DNA of 52,753 bases from a virus. Taxonomy: Duplodnaviria; Caudoviricetes. Below are positions 13,935 through 49,670 of this stretch, piece after piece (positions within the stretch are counted from its first letter, which is position 1; each line of letters begins with the position of its first letter). Location of the stretch: positions 1 to 52,753 of IMG/VR virus record IMGVR_UViG_3300033153_007861; one strand, given 5' to 3'. Made by a program: the position numbers and the translations under genes. The notes beneath the pieces were generated by a model, which was not told where the DNA came from, ran no database searches, and was given only the letters and a program-made list of their open reading frames with translations.

Positions 13935-14009
13935 TGGTTGAGGTATCAGGATTCGAACCTGAAAATACTGGAATCAAAGTCCAGTGCCTTGCCGTTTGGC
14001 GATACCTCA
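13935..14009 (-). tRNA. tRNA-Gln(TTG)
   Basis: TGAGGTA acceptor stem, CTGGA-CTTTGAT-TCCAG anticodon arm, GGTTCGAATCC T-arm, encoded CCA. Confidence 0.95.
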
Positions 14010-14023
14010 ATTTATATATAAAA

Positions 14024-14100
14024 TGGAGACGATACCCAGAATCGAACTGGGAAAAATAGATTTTGCAGATCCACGCCTTTACCAATTTAGCCATATCGCC
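14024..14100 (-). tRNA. tRNA-Cys(GCA)
   Basis: GGCGATA acceptor stem, anticodon loop CTGCAAA, GTTCGAT T-loop, encoded CCA. Confidence 0.93.
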
Positions 14101-14111
14101 GTATATAAAAA

Positions 14112-14197
14112 TGGCGGAGAGTATAGGACTCGAACCTATAAGAGTGATTAGCTCGGTAGTTTTCAAGACTACTGACTTACCATTAGCCTAACTCTCC
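14112..14197 (-). tRNA. tRNA-Ser(TGA)
   Basis: GGAGAG acceptor stem, GTAGT-CTTGAAA-ACTAC anticodon arm, long variable arm, GCCA end. Confidence 0.93.
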
Positions 14198-14275: not shown

Positions 14276-14304
14276 AATATAATACTTACCTACTTGAAAG
14301 TCAA
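14276..14304 (-). promoter_or_regulatory. Sigma70-type promoter with AGGTAAGTAT spacer element
   Basis: TTGACT-17 bp-TATATT. Confidence 0.7.
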
Positions 14305-20058: not shown

Positions 20059-20087
20059 AATATAATACTTACCTGCTGCTTTGTCAA
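20059..20087 (-). promoter_or_regulatory. Putative late promoter with AGGTAAGTAT spacer element
   Basis: TTGACA-17 bp-TATATT. Confidence 0.75.
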
Positions 20088-21732: not shown

Positions 21733-22391
21733 TTATCTCTTAGAATTTTCAATGTATGTCCAAAGATATAAATCAATATCTATATTTATAAATTTCTTCA
21801 ATCTCCCTATTGTTAGCAAATCAACTAATGAATATTTTACATCAAATCCGTAATCATCATCGCCATACATTGTGCAGTAGTTCTCAATTCAGTATCAATT
21901 CCAACTAATGATAAATTATGTACGAGTTCGTCAATTAGATTCAATACTGTATTATCAATCGATACTGACTCTTTTTCCTCACTTGTAGATACGGTCGATT
22001 GCTTGCAGTCGACTATGTTATGTTTTGATCTATCTTGTGTATTACTAACTGTATTACTAACTGTATTACTATAATACTTGCTTTCAGGGATAGGTAAAAT
22101 AGGGTGTTTTATGATTTTCAAGTACCTCTTACTTATTTCTTGTGAATCGTAAATATGTTCAATTCTTGATGAAACATATCCTTTTTTAACAAGATTATTA
22201 ATAATAACACTAACTCTTTTTTTAGATAAGCATAGAAATGTTGCAAAATGCTTGTTTCCAGCAAAGCATCCTTCTCCGTTATCTAAACTATCTATCTCTA
22301 CATATAGTATTTTCTCCTGTAAAGTTAAATTATTACTCAACCATACTTCTTTTGGAATCCAAACACCTTTAAAATCTCTATGCAAACCCAT
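21733..22391 (-). pseudogene. Phage replication initiator (winged HTH, replisome-organiser type), frameshifted near 21890
   Basis: FKGVWIPKEVWLSNNLTLQEKILYVEIDSLDNGEGCFAGNKHFA HTH; the C-terminal domain IENYCTMYGDDDYGFDVKYSLVDLL lies in another frame (21733..21888). Confidence 0.7.
22038..22071. repeat. 12-bp tandem repeat, about 3 copies, inside rep (iteron-like)
   Basis: TGTATTACTAAC x2 plus TGTATTACTA (SNTV repeats). Confidence 0.8.
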
Positions 22392-22414
22392 TGCATCCTC
22401 CTAATTTTAGTTAT

Positions 22415-22560
22415 AAAAAAAGCCCTTAACCTTGCAAGGAAAGTGAGAATCCCATAATTGCTGACACTGACAATTATAGAAATTTCCTTGCAGAGTTAAA
22501 GACTGTTTTGTGTTTTTTAGTGCAACGCCATTGTATTGTATCAGCTTCTCACGACCGACA
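22415..22560 (-). ncRNA. c4/CI-like antisense RNA/attenuator leader
   Basis: 22-bp outer stem, inner stem, loop UGUCAG and bulge UUCUCAC complementary to upstream GUGAGAA-GCUGAUA; U tract follows. Confidence 0.65.
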
Positions 22561-22565
22561 ATTAC

Positions 22566-22594
22566 AATATAATACTTACCTACTGATAATACAA
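22566..22594 (-). promoter_or_regulatory. Promoter with AGGTAAGTAT spacer element
   Basis: TTGTAT-17 bp-TATATT. Confidence 0.6.
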
Positions 22595-22632
22595 GACAAT
22601 TCACATAATTATGATTGAAAACAATAAAAACC

Positions 22633-22661
22633 TTGATTTACAGGGGCTTATGTGTTATATT
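22633..22661 (+). promoter_or_regulatory. Divergent promoter for the plus-strand arm
   Basis: TTGATT-17 bp-TATATT. Confidence 0.6.
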
Positions 22662-22734
22662 TAAGTATGATTAAATGCAAGTTCTTTTAAATGTATAACA
22701 TAGAAAACAATAATAAATAACAAGGAGAATAATA

Positions 22735-23148
22735 ATGAGAAAAGTATTTTTAGGCGGAACTTGTGCGGAAAGTATCTGGAGAGAAGAGTTAATTGGAAAA
22801 TTAAAGATAGATTACTTTGATCCAGTTGTTGAAGATTGGAATGAGGAAGCACAGGAAAAAGAGATTGAACAGAGAGAAGCCTGCGATTATGTTTTATATA
22901 CGATAACTCCACAAATGAAAGGCGTGTATTCTATTGCGGAAGTTGTGGATGATAGCAATAAGAGACCTGATAAAACTATATTCTGTTTACTTGGTTTTTA
23001 TGATGGTGGTAAGTTTACGGCAAGGGAATTAATGTCCCTGTATGCAGTGTTAAAATTAGTAAGTAGTAATGGCGGAAGAGTGTTTACTGATTTAGATAGT
23101 GTAGCTAATTACTTAAACAAGGAGAATAACAATGTCACCATTAATTAG
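22735..23148 (+). CDS. Nucleoside 2-deoxyribosyltransferase-like protein
   Basis: KVFLGGTC..S.WREELI...YFDPVVEDW...CDYVLY...SIAE pattern. Confidence 0.8.
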   Translation: MRKVFLGGTCAESIWREELIGKLKIDYFDPVVEDWNEEAQEKEIEQREACDYVLYTITPQMKGVYSIAEVVDDSNKRPDKTIFCLLGFYDGGKFTARELMSLYAVLKLVSSNGGRVFTDLDSVANYLNKENNNVTIN

Positions 23149-23716: not shown

Positions 23717-24441
23717 ATGATATAGAATTAATTAAGGGTGATTGCTTAGGTGTTATGGATGAATTAATAGATAAAGGCATTGAAGTAGATGCTATAATAA
23801 CCGATCCACCTTTTGGAATATCAAGAGAAAATAATATCTCTACTATGAAAAATAAATACGGAAAATTAGCATACGGAACAGGAATTGATTTTGGCGAGTG
23901 GGATAAAAATGTTGATTTGTATTCTTGGATCAATAAAGGTGTGAAATTGTTAAATAAAAACGGCTGTATGTTTATATTTAATGATTGGAAGAATCTTGGT
24001 AATATTGCCAAATACGCCGAATCATTAGGGATGGATATAAAAGACTGTTTTCGTTGGGAAAAAACAAACCCAATGCCAAGAAATAGAGACAGGAGATATA
24101 TAACTGACTTTGAAATGGGTGTTTGGTTAGTAAAAAAGAAATCTAAATGGGTGTTTAATAGACAAGATGATAAGTTTCAAAGACCTAAATTTGTGAGCAA
24201 CTCAGTTTCAGGCAAGGAGAAAACAAAACATCCCACTCAAAAACCAATAAACTTAATGGAGCTTTTAATAAAAATACACACAAATGAAAATGATATAATT
24301 TTAGATCCATTTATGGGTTCAGGTACAACAGGTGTTGCTTGTAAGAATTTAAATAGGAAATTTATAGGTATTGAGAAGGATGAAGCATATTTTAATATAG
24401 CAAAAGATAGGATTGTAAATTATAAAGGAGGTTTAAAGTGA
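23713..24441 (+). CDS. DNA methyltransferase (N6-A/N4-C, beta class)
   Basis: GDCL, ITDPPF, HPTQKP and LDPFMGSGTT motifs. Confidence 0.95.
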   Translation: MNDIELIKGDCLGVMDELIDKGIEVDAIITDPPFGISRENNISTMKNKYGKLAYGTGIDFGEWDKNVDLYSWINKGVKLLNKNGCMFIFNDWKNLGNIAKYAESLGMDIKDCFRWEKTNPMPRNRDRRYITDFEMGVWLVKKKSKWVFNRQDDKFQRPKFVSNSVSGKEKTKHPTQKPINLMELLIKIHTNENDIILDPFMGSGTTGVACKNLNRKFIGIEKDEAYFNIAKDRIVNYKGGLK

Positions 24442-25064
24442 GCGAAGTTTTAAAAAATGATGATGGGTTTTTAAATGTAAATAACGAGATATTAATTAGT
24501 AGTAAAGTAGTTGCAGAACAATTAGGTAGAAGACACGATGATGTTGTGAAGTTTTTATTAACTAAAATAAATGACCGAACTAGATCGGATATCTTTTTAG
24601 GTGATTATCAAGACAGCATGAATAGGTGTCAAAAAGAAATACTTTTAACCAAAAGAGGATTTACTTTATATATGTTTAGCATTAATGGACACGATGAGTT
24701 CAAGCTAAAATATATCGATAAGTTCGATAAAATGGAAAGAGCTTTAAGGGATATTCGATATATCAAGTTCAGTAGGAAACAACAGGTTGAGCAAATGAGT
24801 ATACTGCAAGATTTATTACCTGAGGAGTTAAAGAAAGATAAGATTCCGTATATTAAGGCAAATATGGTTTCAAATAAAGCTACATCTAATTACTTTGGAT
24901 TTCCTAAAATGATCAAAAAGGGAGATATGAATATTGATATGTTAGAATTAAGAGATAAGATATTAGATGACTACTTGAAACTATATGATATTGCTGGCAC
25001 TACTGATGGATTGAAAGAAATTATCTACAATAAATATAAACAGTTATCTATAAAGGAGAGTTAG
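24438..25064 (+). CDS. rha: Rha family regulator
   Basis: ISSKVVAEQLGRRHDDV...YQDSMNR...LTKRGF...FKLKYIDKFDKME. Confidence 0.85.
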   Translation: MSEVLKNDDGFLNVNNEILISSKVVAEQLGRRHDDVVKFLLTKINDRTRSDIFLGDYQDSMNRCQKEILLTKRGFTLYMFSINGHDEFKLKYIDKFDKMERALRDIRYIKFSRKQQVEQMSILQDLLPEELKKDKIPYIKANMVSNKATSNYFGFPKMIKKGDMNIDMLELRDKILDDYLKLYDIAGTTDGLKEIIYNKYKQLSIKES

Positions 25065-26349: not shown

Positions 26350-26718
26350 ATGAATTTATATGCAGTAATTTTTATACATCATGCACCAAAAGGTAACGAA
26401 AAAGGAATAAAAGAATATGTTTTGGCTGAAAGTGATGAGCAAATGTATGATTATATTGATAGTAAATACATGAGTTGGGATTGGAGTGATAAAGATGAAG
26501 ACCCAGAAGATTATTATATGGATGATGACGAGTGTCGTACATATAAAGACTATTTAGTTAAAATAAAAGGCGAAATGTATTCGGAACCTGATTTGGATGA
26601 TTTATTTTACGGCAGGACACTTTTTGGGTGGAAGATGATACAACAGGATTATAATGATGATTGTGCAAGTTTAATAGAATTAGGAGTGATAAGCACAATA
26701 AACAAGGAGGAAAAGTGA
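26350..26718 (+). CDS. Acidic hypothetical protein
   Basis: GGAGGAG SD; D/E-rich. Confidence 0.7.
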   Translation: MNLYAVIFIHHAPKGNEKGIKEYVLAESDEQMYDYIDSKYMSWDWSDKDEDPEDYYMDDDECRTYKDYLVKIKGEMYSEPDLDDLFYGRTLFGWKMIQQDYNDDCASLIELGVISTINKEEK

Positions 26719-27431
26719 GTATATTTACAAAGAGAATAGAGGCTAGAGAGCCTGAAACACTAATGATTATAGGAAAACCCAAGTGTGGAAAAACATCCAT
26801 AGTTAGTAAATTACCTAATAGTGTTATAATAGACTATGAGGGTGGAACTAAATACATAAATCATGACCATGTGATAGATGTGGTTAATTCAGATTTCAGT
26901 ATGTGGGGAGAGTTATCTAAAATAAAAGGTCAATATGAGTTTGGGATTATAGATACTGCGACATACATGGAACAATACCTAATGACACAAATAGTTAATA
27001 GTTATAATAGTATCAGGACACCAGATAAACACATTGCTACAATAGGGGATATACCGCATGGTGGAGGATATGGAATATTGAGGCAGAAAACTGCTGCACA
27101 TATAGATTTTTTAAAATCTATCTTTAATAAATTAATAATATTGGGTCACACAAAGAGTAGGGTTATTGATAGTGACGAGATAGCATTAGATTTGGCATTA
27201 ACTGGAAAAAATGTAGACTTAGTTTTATCCGGTATGGATACTATAGCTTATATGCACAGGGATAAGGAGAATGGCGTATTGTCATTTGAAGCAAGTAGCA
27301 AAATTGTAGCTGGTTCACGAGTTAGTGCATTAGATAGGCGTAAAATCATAATATCTATTAAAAAAGAAGATAGTATCGATACTTTCTGGAGTGAAATATA
27401 TCCTGATACTTTAAAACCCAAGGAGAGATAA
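26715..27431 (+). CDS. AAA-family ATPase (Sak4-like recombinase); start moved to GTG 26715
   Basis: GKPKCGKT Walker A, IDYEGG, IIDT, GGGY and ILGH motifs; AGGAGG SD before the GTG. Confidence 0.8.
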   Translation: MSIFTKRIEAREPETLMIIGKPKCGKTSIVSKLPNSVIIDYEGGTKYINHDHVIDVVNSDFSMWGELSKIKGQYEFGIIDTATYMEQYLMTQIVNSYNSIRTPDKHIATIGDIPHGGGYGILRQKTAAHIDFLKSIFNKLIILGHTKSRVIDSDEIALDLALTGKNVDLVLSGMDTIAYMHRDKENGVLSFEASSKIVAGSRVSALDRRKIIISIKKEDSIDTFWSEIYPDTLKPKER

Positions 27432-36928: not shown

Positions 36929-37633
36929 TTATTTAATATCAAGAGCGTAAGCCTCGAACCACACTTCCTTATGATAAGAATTTACTGCTCCGTAATTTAC
37001 ATCAGGTACCTTTATTGACAACTCGTAATCTACCTCACTTTGCATATCCCTAACAACCTTAGTAAGTTGTCTCCAATCAAACTTCATTCCATGATATATA
37101 ATCTGCATCTTTTTTACAGTAGCATAATCAAGTGATTTGTCAAGTTCAACCTTAAGCTTCTTGTTTTCTTTAGAGAATTTACTTGCTGTCGCCATCGATG
37201 TAGCTTCTCTCCTACTTCCAATTTCTGCCTTAGTCCTCACTGCTTCATTTCTTTCAAGTAATGCCTGCTCTTTCTTTTCAACTTCATCAGCATAGAGCCT
37301 TAGTGCTTCAGGTAATGATTGTGGTAAACTTGCTTTCAGTTTCTTCTCGCATTCAATGAAATACTTTCTCGCTTGTTTACCTTTATTATTTCTTGCGAGC
37401 ATAGATAATTCTTTAGCCATATCTAAAGAAAGTTGGTATTCTTTTGTCTTCCCACCACTTACTAAATTTTTAGTAAACGATTTATAGTCTTGATTTTCAA
37501 TAAAATCAAAGTCTTTAATTGAGTTATTAATCCAATCGTTAAACCTACTTTTAATTTCCAAAAACAAATACAATTCTCTGCCGTCAACTCTTCTTTCATT
37601 CTCAACCACTTCAATCTTAATTAATTCATTCAT
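36929..37633 (-). CDS. AntA/AntB-family antirepressor
   Basis: VDGRELYLFLEIKSRFNDWI...EYQLSLDMAKELSM...ARKYFIECEK; likely start ATG 37633. Confidence 0.9.
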   Translation of the reverse strand: MNELIKIEVVENERRVDGRELYLFLEIKSRFNDWINNSIKDFDFIENQDYKSFTKNLVSGGKTKEYQLSLDMAKELSMLARNNKGKQARKYFIECEKKLKASLPQSLPEALRLYADEVEKKEQALLERNEAVRTKAEIGSRREATSMATASKFSKENKKLKVELDKSLDYATVKKMQIIYHGMKFDWRQLTKVVRDMQSEVDYELSIKVPDVNYGAVNSYHKEVWFEAYALDIK

Positions 37634-37634
37634 C

Positions 37635-37706
37635 TTAAACACACCTTTCATAAGTTAATTGCATAATGCCATCTTTATTTTCAATACCTAAATTCATTAA
37701 TTCCAT
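37635..37706 (-). pseudogene. Rha remnant, 23 aa
   Basis: MELMNLGIENKDG is identical to the start of 48752..48961, then IMQLTYERCV*. Confidence 0.7.
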
Positions 37707-41625: not shown

Positions 41626-43422
41626 CTACAATTTCCTCCAGGAGTAATCGTTAATTACATATTTCTCATTAAAATTAATCTCCTTGAACCTTCTTGTTGC
41701 CTTATCAAATATCATTTTTACCTCCCCTAGGTCGCCTGCTTCTCTATTTTTCACTATTTCTAAATTCATGTCATGATCACCACCCTTTTTCATCCTGTGA
41801 ACAATCAATACATTATCTGCCAAATTGGTTATATTTCCTGATCCAGCTATTGATTTCTTGGACACTATTTCAGATTTATTTGGATGTGCTACAAGTATAA
41901 TGTGTACCGGGTACTTCTTTACGAAATTAACCATATCAACTATAGCTTCTGTCTCTTGTTTTAACTCGTTAGCTCCGTAATTACTCTTGCCTAATGTTAA
42001 AAAATTATCTATTACAAAGAACTTTACGCCTAATCTACGATACAGATAACTAAATGATTTCAATACAGCCTTGGTCTCCACAGATGATTTAGTACTATCG
42101 TACAAATAAGCATTATCATCGAACCATTTATCGATTTTCTTTACCGCATAATCTTTTGGTATATACTTTATTTTTCCGTATTTATTTCGATACTCAACAA
42201 GATCACTTTGGTTGCAAGCTTGGCTTAGTATCCATGACTTATACTGATTATGTGATAATTCTGCGGAAAACACCCCTGCCTTATATCCACCCTCTACAAT
42301 ATTTAATAGTATTTGACCTAGAAAAGTTGATTTACCCGACCCATTCTCACCTGTTAAGATAGTTAATTCGTTCAATCTAAACCCTTCCAATATGTGCGAT
42401 AACGAATGAAAACCAGTTGGTATTGATTCCAGTTCTCTGTTTACTTTAATACTAGATAAAGATATAGCACTTTCATTACCAACTAATCTATAGGTTTTAA
42501 TGCACTTCAGTACATTGTCAATACCTTCCGCTACCAACAACTCATTAACATCATTATGCTGCTTAGGCACAGTAGATATAGCCATTTTTTCACTACCATA
42601 GCGGATGATAGTGTTTGCAATAAACTCCTCACCAGCTTTGTCATTGTCTGCTATCAATATAATTAATGGTATTTCTTCCAACCAATCAAAACAATTCTCA
42701 ATCCAACTCAAATCACTTGTGCCAGATGGTATTGACACAACATTAGTATATCCACTTTCATATATACTTAAAGCATCTATCTCGCCTTCACAAATGACCA
42801 GTGTCTGATGTTTATCTATATTGTTCATGCCCCACAATATAGGTTTTGAACCTGACACTCTCCAGCTCTTTTTACCATCACCTTTCTTGTAACCAATAGC
42901 TCTGTATTTACCAAAAACCTCTTCTCCATTGTCATCATAATATGGAAAATAAACAGATGGTATGATACCATCCCTGTAGTAATTCACCTCTCCAATATCA
43001 AAGGCATTTAATGTCTCAGTACTAATACCTCTATCTTTAAATTCCCGTACTGCTTGGTCTCCAAGTTCTTTATGTTTGACATTAGGCTTAGTATACTCTT
43101 TAGGCTTAATATACACCCCGTTGTCTTTCACATTATCCGTAATACTTAACCCCATTTCCTCTTTGACTTTATTAAACGCCTCTTTAAATTCAATATTATA
43201 CTTGTCTTCATAAGCTGAAAATATATCCAACTTTTCACCACATGAAAAACATTTCCAGAAATTACCATCTTTATACCACTTGAAACTTGGTGTTTTATCT
43301 TCATGAAACGGACAAGAAGCATCATTCCCTTTATATGCGAAGCTATACAAACTAGCTATTACATCCTTAGCTCTGTCTCCGTATCGCCCTCTTAAATCAT
43401 CAGTTGTTATTTGCATTACCAC
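41626..43422 (-). CDS. Bifunctional DNA primase-helicase (CHC2 Zn finger, TOPRIM, SF4 helicase)
   Basis: CPFHEDKTPSF...CFSCG; CEGEIDALS and DNDKAG; GENGSGKS, FVIDN, LVAHP, IAGSG and KNR motifs. Confidence 0.95.
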   Translation of the reverse strand: MVMQITTDDLRGRYGDRAKDVIASLYSFAYKGNDASCPFHEDKTPSFKWYKDGNFWKCFSCGEKLDIFSAYEDKYNIEFKEAFNKVKEEMGLSITDNVKDNGVYIKPKEYTKPNVKHKELGDQAVREFKDRGISTETLNAFDIGEVNYYRDGIIPSVYFPYYDDNGEEVFGKYRAIGYKKGDGKKSWRVSGSKPILWGMNNIDKHQTLVICEGEIDALSIYESGYTNVVSIPSGTSDLSWIENCFDWLEEIPLIILIADNDKAGEEFIANTIIRYGSEKMAISTVPKQHNDVNELLVAEGIDNVLKCIKTYRLVGNESAISLSSIKVNRELESIPTGFHSLSHILEGFRLNELTILTGENGSGKSTFLGQILLNIVEGGYKAGVFSAELSHNQYKSWILSQACNQSDLVEYRNKYGKIKYIPKDYAVKKIDKWFDDNAYLYDSTKSSVETKAVLKSFSYLYRRLGVKFFVIDNFLTLGKSNYGANELKQETEAIVDMVNFVKKYPVHIILVAHPNKSEIVSKKSIAGSGNITNLADNVLIVHRMKKGGDHDMNLEIVKNREAGDLGEVKMIFDKATRRFKEINFNEKYVINDYSWRKL

Positions 43423-48962: not shown

Positions 48963-49670
48963 ATGGAATTAATCAAGATTGAAGTAGTAGAAAATGAAAG
49001 AAGAGTTGATGGTAGAGAGTTATGGAGATTTTTAGAAATTAAAACCGAGTTTGCGAAATGGGTTGATAGATATATTAAAGACTTTGACTTTATTGATGGA
49101 CAGGACTTTTCGTCATTTTTGGACAAAAGTAAAGGTGGTCGACCAAGTAAGGAATATCAATTATCTTTAGATATGGCAAAAGAATTATCTATGTTAGCAA
49201 GAAATGATAAAGGTAAAGAAGCAAGAAAGTATTTTATTGAGTGTGAAAAGAAATTGAAACAAGCACCACAACAACAAGCACCACAAACAAGATTAGAGTG
49301 GATAAAACTAGCATTACAACAAGAAGAAGAAAAACAACAATTACAAATTGAAAAAGATTATGCTGTTAGAACTAAAGCCGAAATTGGCTCGAGACGGGAA
49401 GCAACATCTATGGCAACCGCAAGCAAATTTTCTAAAGAAAACAAGAAGCTTAAAAGTTATATTGGTGAGTGTGAAGATTATGCAACTATCTTAGCAGTTG
49501 AACGAATTTACAAGGATGGTGGTTTTAAGTGGAGAGAACTAAAGAAGTATTGTATAGCTAATGAACTTGAAGTCAAGGAAGCACCAGATAAGCGATTCGG
49601 CAAGGTGAAATCTTATCCTGCTAAAGCTTGGTTAGAACTGTATGGTGTAGAATTAAGCGAGATATTTTAA
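48963..49670 (+). CDS. AntA/AntB-family antirepressor
   Basis: VDGRELWRFLE...GGRPSKEYQLSLDMAKELSM...ARKYFIECEK. Confidence 0.9.
   Translation: MELIKIEVVENERRVDGRELWRFLEIKTEFAKWVDRYIKDFDFIDGQDFSSFLDKSKGGRPSKEYQLSLDMAKELSMLARNDKGKEARKYFIECEKKLKQAPQQQAPQTRLEWIKLALQQEEEKQQLQIEKDYAVRTKAEIGSRREATSMATASKFSKENKKLKSYIGECEDYATILAVERIYKDGGFKWRELKKYCIANELEVKEAPDKRFGKVKSYPAKAWLELYGVELSEIF

Follow-up and report, generated by a model that had tools for sequence, protein, structure and literature searches.

A putative kissing-loop leader before a replication-organizer-like gene in a Caudoviricetes genome, with counterparts before rep homologs

Here, we analyze a leader on the minus strand of a 52,753-nucleotide (nt) DNA from a virus of the Caudoviricetes (IMG/VR record IMGVR_UViG_3300033153_007861; this whole stretch is referred to as the window), located between a predicted promoter and a 184-amino acid (aa) replication (rep)-organizer-like gene. 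We suggest that this leader is a kissing-loop transcription attenuator, or gives rise to a small leader RNA, that controls the rep operon by a logic analogous to that of P4 CI and P1 c4, and we place the probability of this reading at about 0.58. The leader is structured with a bias to the minus strand and carries accessible complementary segments, one in the loop of a weak 5' hairpin and one in a very stable hairpin directly followed by a U tract, and leaders of this design recur, with covarying loops, before rep homologs in many unrelated phages.

Structure of the leader

Along the minus strand, the elements follow each other in the order promoter, weak 5' hairpin (HP1), 34-nt linker, 84-nt hairpin, tract of seven U residues (U7), Shine-Dalgarno sequence, and 184-aa open reading frame (ORF). 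An earlier interpretation by a model that saw the letters only (the sequence-only reading) had described a structured minus-strand leader in which two single-stranded segments are colinearly complementary to an upstream target and a terminator lies just before the rep-like gene; this description holds, and each of its elements was found in its place. The features are as follows, with positions counted in the window and P(unpaired) denoting the probability that a segment is unpaired.

22566–22594, minus strand: promoter P1, with −35 element TTGTAT (22594–22589), 17-nt spacer, and −10 element TATATT (22571–22566)
22539–22560, minus strand: HP1, composed of UGUCGGU / CGUGAGAA / GCUGAUA, ΔG −5.5
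22552–22539, minus strand: the full target, GUGAGAAGCUGAUA
22546–22552, minus strand: X1, GUGAGAA, in the loop of HP1, P(unpaired) 0.86
22539–22545, minus strand: X2, GCUGAUA, the 3' arm of HP1, P(unpaired) 0.24
22505–22538, minus strand: linker of 34 nt, A/C-rich and G-poor, mostly unpaired in the centroid structure
22421–22504, minus strand: long hairpin of 84 nt, predicted terminator, ΔG −35.7 kcal/mol
22460–22466, minus strand: X2', UGUCAGC, apical, with UGUCA unpaired and GC closing the upper stem in the minimum free energy (MFE) structure
22443–22449, minus strand: X1', UUCUCAC, the 3' bulge of the long hairpin, P(unpaired) 0.95
22415–22421, minus strand: U7, directly 3' of the long hairpin, the first U of which can pair with A22504
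22397–22402, minus strand: Shine-Dalgarno sequence AGGAGG, 12 nt past U7 and 5 nt before the ATG
21837–22391, minus strand: 184-aa rep-organizer-like gene, with its ATG at 22391

Transcription from the promoter P1 is predicted to start at ~22559, making HP1, which has three G-U pairs among its seven, a weak structure at the very 5' end of the RNA. In the long hairpin, a 21-bp lower stem with two single-nucleotide interruptions is separated by the 7-nt 3' bulge from a 12-bp upper stem, which includes three U-G pairs and carries a loop of 8 nt. With a stem of −35.7 kcal/mol followed by U7 on the transcribed strand, it has the form of an intrinsic terminator; a simple terminator scan did not list it, and among the 61 candidates in the window for a hairpin followed by a T tract it is the most stable (−34.1 in that scan, the next ones reaching −24.8 and −22.8). 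The Shine-Dalgarno sequence is free of hairpin sequestration. When the two strands were folded, the minus strand gave −43.1 kcal/mol (z −4.3), a value matched by 0 of 200 shuffles, vs. −28.8 kcal/mol (z −1.1; 27 of 200 shuffles as good) for the plus strand. This asymmetry and the three U-G pairs of the upper stem bear out the earlier suggestion that the G-U pairs favor the minus strand.

GUGAGAA in the HP1 loop and UUCUCAC in the bulge are exact complements, the bulge consists of exactly these seven complementary nucleotides, and the duplex between them has a calculated stability of −7.6 kcal/mol. X2 and the apical UGUCAGC can form 7 bp, one of them G-U, with a duplex energy of −7.8 kcal/mol. 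The sequence-only reading had treated both halves alike as a two-segment, colinear complementarity. For loop and bulge, this is the case, the match being exact and both partners accessible. For the second half, only five of the seven apical nucleotides are unpaired in the MFE structure, and their partner is the 3' arm of HP1 with a P(unpaired) of 0.24; therefore, pairing of this half needs opening of HP1. A direct repeat (D2) in which 10 of 11 nt agree links positions 22554–22564, i.e., the start of the leader and the HP1 5' arm, to positions 22466–22476, i.e., the upper stem and apex of the long hairpin. Thus, the apical loop has a weaker copy in the 5' arm of HP1, which pairs with X2 less well (three G-U pairs) than the apex does (one G-U pair). 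As judged from the sequence, this layout would suit a toehold contact of loop and bulge that then proceeds to strand exchange.

When the 56-nt leader was subjected to 200,000 dinucleotide shuffles, a complement of the bulge alone arose with a frequency of 0.0043 and both halves in colinear order with a frequency of 4e-5, these being post hoc estimates. The complete 14-nt target has five matches elsewhere in the genome at ≤3 mismatches vs. 5.1 expected, and there is no second copy of it between 22420 and the rep start.

Leaders before rep homologs

The leader of the window lacks close relatives in the sets that were searched. A blastn comparison of positions 22300–22750 with cultured phages gave no match; scans of viral, genome, and metagenome contigs guided by the protein reached no more than partial matches of 58–66% identity in the N-terminal domain, with different leaders upstream; and the 43 matches to a pattern for the lower stem were all unrelated. 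By protein, the closest hint at a host is a Cellulosilyticum metagenome-assembled genome (MAG; 57%).

The design of the leader is found more widely. From viral, genome, and metagenome contigs, we compiled 150 unique regions that precede rep homologs. A hairpin and U tract lie ≤90 nt from the start codon in 72 of them, and these 72 have between them 28 distinct terminator apices. For 14 of the apices, a Watson-Crick match of ≥7 nt occurs within ≤130 nt upstream, vs. 1.6 expected from dinucleotide shuffles (Poisson-binomial P 2e-11), while control searches for direct repeats, reversed sequences, and non-reversed complements gave two, zero, and two, respectively. The same loci provide a natural control: 69 of 670 other terminator-like hairpins (10%) reach 7 nt vs. 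11 of 16 rep-leader hairpins under the same filter, and several of the 69 are themselves operon leaders of the same kind that lie ahead of a gene inserted before rep. In the cases inspected, the upstream partner belongs to the loop of a hairpin close to the promoter. We counted >20 matching loop pairs that differ in sequence, and the length of the pairing clusters at 6 to 8 nt, which is the size of classical loop-loop complexes. The class can be delimited by a loop that is complementary over 6 to 8 nt or more. The window has, before a rep-organizer homolog, a 5' hairpin loop complementary to a single-stranded part of the downstream terminator hairpin, and it represents a variant in which this part is the 3' bulge plus the apex.

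One group, family 1, comprises 78 loci with 27 unique leaders and 40 unique upstream regions, all 40 of which have complementary loops. Its three loop types (AUUGCAG(A)/(U)CUGCAAU, GUCGGAU/AUCCGAC, and GUUGCAG/CUGCAAC) differ from each other at one to four of the seven positions, and every change is compensated in the partner while the rest of the leader is nearly invariant. Pairwise differences per site amount to 0.30–0.37 in the two loops and to 0.05–0.13 in stems, linker, internal loops, and U tract; that is, the loops are three- to sevenfold more variable than the remaining leader. The loop type tracks the two Rep clades except at 3 of 75 loci, at which it has been exchanged. Two pattern scans of viral contigs for further loop types of this family returned chance matches only.

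Apart from its loops, the family 1 leader (L135 and others, ~95 nt before the rep ATG) has a near-invariant single-stranded linker and, in its terminator, a near-invariant 9x9 internal loop, which share the short motifs GAAYUU and UUGAUA, and this invariance suggests a further, putative binding site. The leaders of family 1 can also be read as an ORF of 12 codons that begins in HP1, and leader-peptide attenuation was considered as a general mechanism; it was rejected, as the first codon of this ORF varies among ATG, GTG, TTG, CTG, and GCG, and as L037, L170, and the window are without an equivalent ORF.

Family 2 comprises six distinct leaders with four loop types, and a fifth type occurs in the related L185. 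Its kissing helix is 97.6% paired, and three of the seven pairs change on both sides. Over the whole structure, 97.7% of cells are paired, vs. 39–54% when the partners are slid against each other, and the covariation score of the whole structure was reached by 0 of 500 shuffles. As in the window, G-U pairs in the stems point to an RNA on this strand. One member, L170, has a leader that directly abuts rep. In five others, an additional gene separates rep from the kissing-loop leader, with the leader located at ~900–1000 (L166, L168, L174, and L176) or ~160–250 (L167); by eye, the inserted gene resembles HNH/AP2-type endonucleases.

Further lineages each have a matching pair of their own (L037, L057/L187, L058/L171, L062/L196, L063/L195, L064, L116, L117, L121, L126, L127, L186, L201, and L206). 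The pairs of L115 and L185 were read by eye, and that of L185 was also found computationally. L121 has, at ~1285–1500, two successive hairpins before rep, one with a 10-nt upstream complement (GAAAAACUCG / CGAGUUUUUC) and the other with an 8-nt one. Negative loci include a clade of the L067–L080 type, which has a plain terminator after the upstream gene, and L160, L200/L061, L101, L123, and L001. The contigs that bear such leaders carry the MAG labels Saprospiraceae, Glaciecola, Acutalibacteraceae, Phycisphaerae, Fimenecus, and Brevinematales, with the proviso that binning of phage contigs may err. None of the 31 relatives' loci that were scanned matched an Rfam family, and in the genomes of three relatives the 8-nt loop motif has one to two further copies each, which is approximately the level of controls.

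Gene and genome context

The N-terminal part of the 184-aa protein matches PHROG 270, 2880, and 19658, annotated as "replication initiation protein" (E 7e-14 to 3e-11), and Pfam HTH_36 (E 7e-10). Based on these matches, it begins with a winged-helix domain similar to that of phage replication initiators and replisome organizers. The gene is followed on the same strand by genes for an exonuclease and a large terminase and by a 440-aa ORF. A 65-aa ORF that runs over the leader (22407–22604) begins upstream of the predicted transcript start and has no Pfam or PHROG match.

The genome has a GC content of 31.7%. No tyrosine integrase was found in the window, a record that is 93% complete, or in the records of five relatives, three of which are ≥90% complete. 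At gathering thresholds, Rfam detects only three tRNAs in the whole window. The record also codes for three paralogous Ant/Rha-like proteins of the anti-repressor type (24438–25064, 36929–37651, and 48963–49670), a primase/helicase (41626–43422), and a Sak4-like protein (26661–27431).

A 16-nt block of the promoter P1 that covers spacer and −10 element, AGGTAAGTATTATATT, recurs identically at two other minus-strand promoters; at ≤3 mismatches, the three sites were found vs. 0.62 expected. The shared block is possibly the binding site of a phage regulator. The two sister promoters are as follows.

20059–20087, minus strand: promoter P2, with −35 element TTGACA (20087–20082), before the packaging genes
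14276–14304, minus strand: promoter P3, with −35 element TTGACT (14304–14299), before the tRNA cluster and structural gene block

Both are followed within ~60 nt by a hairpin and U tract (P2, −14.4 kcal/mol; P3, −25.2 kcal/mol), and both leaders are without HP1. The cluster of three tRNAs (13938–14197, minus strand) lies directly downstream of the promoter P3 and its leader hairpin (14263–14224).

Discussion

We suggest the following scenario for the window. Transcription from the promoter P1 would start at ~22559, and the RNA would fold the weak HP1 first. Approximately 35 nt later, the very stable 84-nt hairpin and U7 would follow and act as an intrinsic terminator at a distance of 25 nt from the rep start, so that the majority of transcripts would end at U7 as an RNA of ~145 nt and rep would be expressed only from read-through. 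The HP1 loop would kiss the 7-nt bulge in the terminator hairpin, and this contact would extend by strand displacement, in which the apical loop would take the place of the G-U-rich 5' arm in pairing with the 3' arm of HP1. The RNA-RNA contact would be the regulatory and specificity element of the attenuator, which sets or senses the passage of polymerase into rep. Terminated or trimmed leader RNAs may, in addition, though with clearly lower probability, contact the nascent leaders of sibling genomes and in that way exert dose-dependent, type-specific negative control. Three points of this scenario are inferred from the structure and its counterparts: that transcripts terminate at U7, that the contact is regulatory, and that it may act in trans.

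The loop-bulge pairing lies off the terminator stem, and an antiterminator helix that competes with the terminator arms was seen neither in the folds nor in the ensemble nor by inspection. Therefore, the contact cannot be a classical switch; it must either work in cis, through the kinetics of folding or the stability of the RNA, or mediate recognition between molecules. To judge by the sequences compared, the pattern of variation favors a role in specificity because the loops change fastest and yet always match, because the pairing has a length of 6 to 8 nt, and because loop types are occasionally exchanged. The same pattern of variation is known for the incompatibility loops of plasmids and for P1/P7 c4.

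Several observations weigh against the attenuator reading or against parts of it. The missing antiterminator helix is one of them; likewise, the kiss between loop and bulge does not compete with the terminator stem, so that the pairing offers no evident route to a change in termination. In the window, the partner of the HP1 loop is a bulge, unlike in other lineages, in which it is the apex. The sequence-only reading had proposed that RNA pairing controls rep, and the covarying loop-loop complementarity before rep homologs elsewhere lends this proposal strong indirect support; the window copy itself has no close relative, and pairing there would rest on analogy. Half of the distinct apices (14 of 28) have no 7-nt complement. 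There are 44 records of cultured phages with rep homologs; of the four that were fetched, three had upstream regions that were folded or read, and none of these has such a leader; the fourth is Bcep22, where rep as annotated overlaps with the gene before it and leaves no intergenic room. The −35 element of the promoter P1 is weak, with three of six consensus matches, and a consensus promoter scan did not call this promoter. The three promoters with a shared block suggest a genome-wide scheme of promoter-proximal termination and antitermination, to which HP1 and the kissing layer would be added only at P1. Action in trans is further weakened by the presence of both partners on one molecule, for which an intramolecular fold is the simplest physical outcome, and by the lack of an independent promoter for the hairpin. 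Finally, the lack of a tyrosine integrase in the record and in those of the five relatives weighs against action in trans as well and, though not decisively, against a temperate context. The immunity role that had been proposed earlier is without a lysogenic context and, thus, weakened.

Among other explanations, a purely intramolecular module is one that we take seriously while doubting it. According to this idea, the loop-bulge contact is a tertiary brace for compaction, protection of the 5' end, or folding of the terminator, and has no role in trans or in specificity. It would fit with the placement of both partners on one transcript, with linkers that by rough geometry are long enough for contact in cis in the lineages inspected, with the absence of extra target copies in the window and near-control numbers of motif copies in relatives, and with the lack of an integrase. 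However, a brace gives no reason why the loops are the most variable part of these leaders or why loop types move between backgrounds, and 7 to 8 perfect pairs exceed what intramolecular tertiary contacts usually need. Factor-dependent antitermination of the lambda Q/N type, in which a phage protein overrides a constitutive terminator and the complementarity is incidental, is in our view unlikely. Three minus-strand promoters with an identical 16-nt block, each followed by a hairpin and U tract within ~60 nt, are in line with it, as is a kiss that cannot open the terminator stem. However, an antiterminator gene was not identified, and neither the bipartite complementarity (4e-5) nor the class-wide covariation is accounted for; moreover, antitermination and control by kissing are compatible and not mutually exclusive. 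That the hairpin is an ordinary strong terminator and its complementarity a coincidence is improbable. The genome is AT-rich (31.7% GC), ~10% of unrelated hairpins have 7-nt matches, and in the broad test the per-sequence p for a 7-mer is only 0.045; but coincidence would have to produce the exact bulge match together with the second half at 4e-5, a bulge of exactly the seven complementary nucleotides, and a recurrence before rep homologs far above chance.

Two further explanations carry very little weight. The sequence-only reading had assigned the element to the c4/CI type, and membership in the P1 c4/P4 CI family, i.e., a processed immunity RNA of a temperate phage, is very improbable. The resemblance that prompts this assignment consists of two separated single-stranded segments that are colinear with adjacent targets upstream in the same leader and of a replication gene downstream, and P4 CI is described as pairing with seqA and seqC, so that transcription terminates prematurely and the replication genes are not expressed (PMC4825925). 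Against it, RF01695 has no match at E ≤10 anywhere in the record of 52,753 nt, and a comparison of positions 22100–22900 with all of Rfam at the same cutoff gave six weak matches to small nucleolar RNA, microRNA, and small RNA models, all far below thresholds and none of the C4 type; nor does the window have a downstream target copy equivalent to a2b2 or seqC at or before the rep ribosome-binding site (RBS), or a detectable integrase. The assignment is, therefore, not upheld. An element that acts at the level of DNA, such as operator half-sites, a cruciform, or an origin, is likewise very improbable. Inverted repeats and a divergent promoter region beside a replication-type gene would be in keeping with it. 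However, the folding asymmetry between the strands (z −4.3 vs. −1.1) and the G-U pairs, which on the other strand, or in DNA, would turn into A-C mismatches, argue for RNA, as do the complementary 7-mers, which lie ~100 bp apart in unpaired parts of hairpins, and the promoter and U tract that frame the element.

Beyond the attenuator reading of the window, a broader proposal can be made tentatively, and we lean toward doubting it: a previously undescribed class of "self-kissing" leader RNAs might head the replication operons of phages from at least five bacterial phyla, as judged from MAG labels, and provide, through a fast-changing loop pair that always matches, a specificity code made of RNA only, with which terminated leaders would recognize the nascent leaders of same-type genomes and throttle rep. 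If true, phages without integrases would possess a plasmid-style control of copy number, incompatibility, or superinfection, and the loop-plus-bulge arrangement of the window would add a toehold and strand exchange to it.

Full-text searches of the literature, in which supplements were not covered, retrieved no paper that describes such leaders, and no Rfam family for them was found. Sense-strand riboregulators encoded in leaders and loop-loop control of rep are known. What appears to be new is that a single leader holds the two complementary loops and that one of these is part of the intrinsic terminator hairpin, to which the window adds the combination of bulge and apex. If this reading is correct, RNA loop recognition would reach beyond plasmid countertranscripts and the P1/P4/N15 immunity RNAs and would form a common gate for phage replication modules. 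The >20 matching loop sequences would then be a natural orthogonal set for addressing how kissing affects intrinsic termination, for cross-talk and exclusion between related phages, and for riboregulator design, and the class would add a family to RNA databases.

Comparison with known systems

In phi29, complementary loops of the packaging RNA (pRNA) covary between relatives and can pair intermolecularly. The leaders described here share with pRNA and, reportedly, with the GOLLD/ROOL cages complementary and covarying loops on one RNA; unlike these leaders, pRNA and GOLLD/ROOL are packaging or cage RNAs and not terminator leaders, and the window has no Rfam match to them. The lambda PR'-tR' 6S RNA and StxS arise from a promoter with a strong terminator within ~150 nt, which yields an abundant small RNA unless there is Q-dependent read-through. 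Unlike the leader in the window, they have no self-complementary loops, and a Q-like gene was not identified in the window.

In the copy control of plasmid rep genes (pT181, pIP501, ColE1, R1, and the pseudoknot activator of IncB/IncI), kissing of loops over ~7 nt starts recognition, and the loops are the determinants of incompatibility. The window is similar in that a terminator or structured leader lies just before the gene for a replication initiator. By contrast, plasmid regulators are countertranscripts from the opposite strand with full complementarity, while in the window the partners share a strand and match in their loops only. Of the promoter-like sites listed on the plus strand in its vicinity, none reads into the leader, all being directed away from it, and neither a preemptor helix nor mutually exclusive folds were found.

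P1/P7 c4 (RF01695; a1b1, a'b', and a2b2) has, like the window, two separated segments, two adjacent boxes, and an upstream copy of the boxes in the same transcript. It acts on a2b2 at the RBS of icd, causing a block of translation and polarity. Unlike c4, the window has no RBS-proximal target, and c4 controls an antirepressor and not rep; there is also no similarity in sequence or structure. A role of c4 in the control of Ant has been reported (PMC8201110).

The P4 CI RNA is described as pairing with complementary sequences on either side of itself, upstream and downstream, which stops transcription ahead of the P4 replication genes (PMC4825925). Unlike the window, in which a corresponding downstream target and an integrase were not found, P4 has the seqC target and is temperate, and in the window the complementary segments lie within the intrinsic terminator hairpin. 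P4 CI is a processed RNA of the Rfam C4 family. In P4, as suggested for the window, a sense-strand RNA from the leader of the controlled operon finds its target upstream in the same leader and causes premature termination before the replication genes. P4 CI is the closest known logic to that suggested for the kissing-loop leader of the window.
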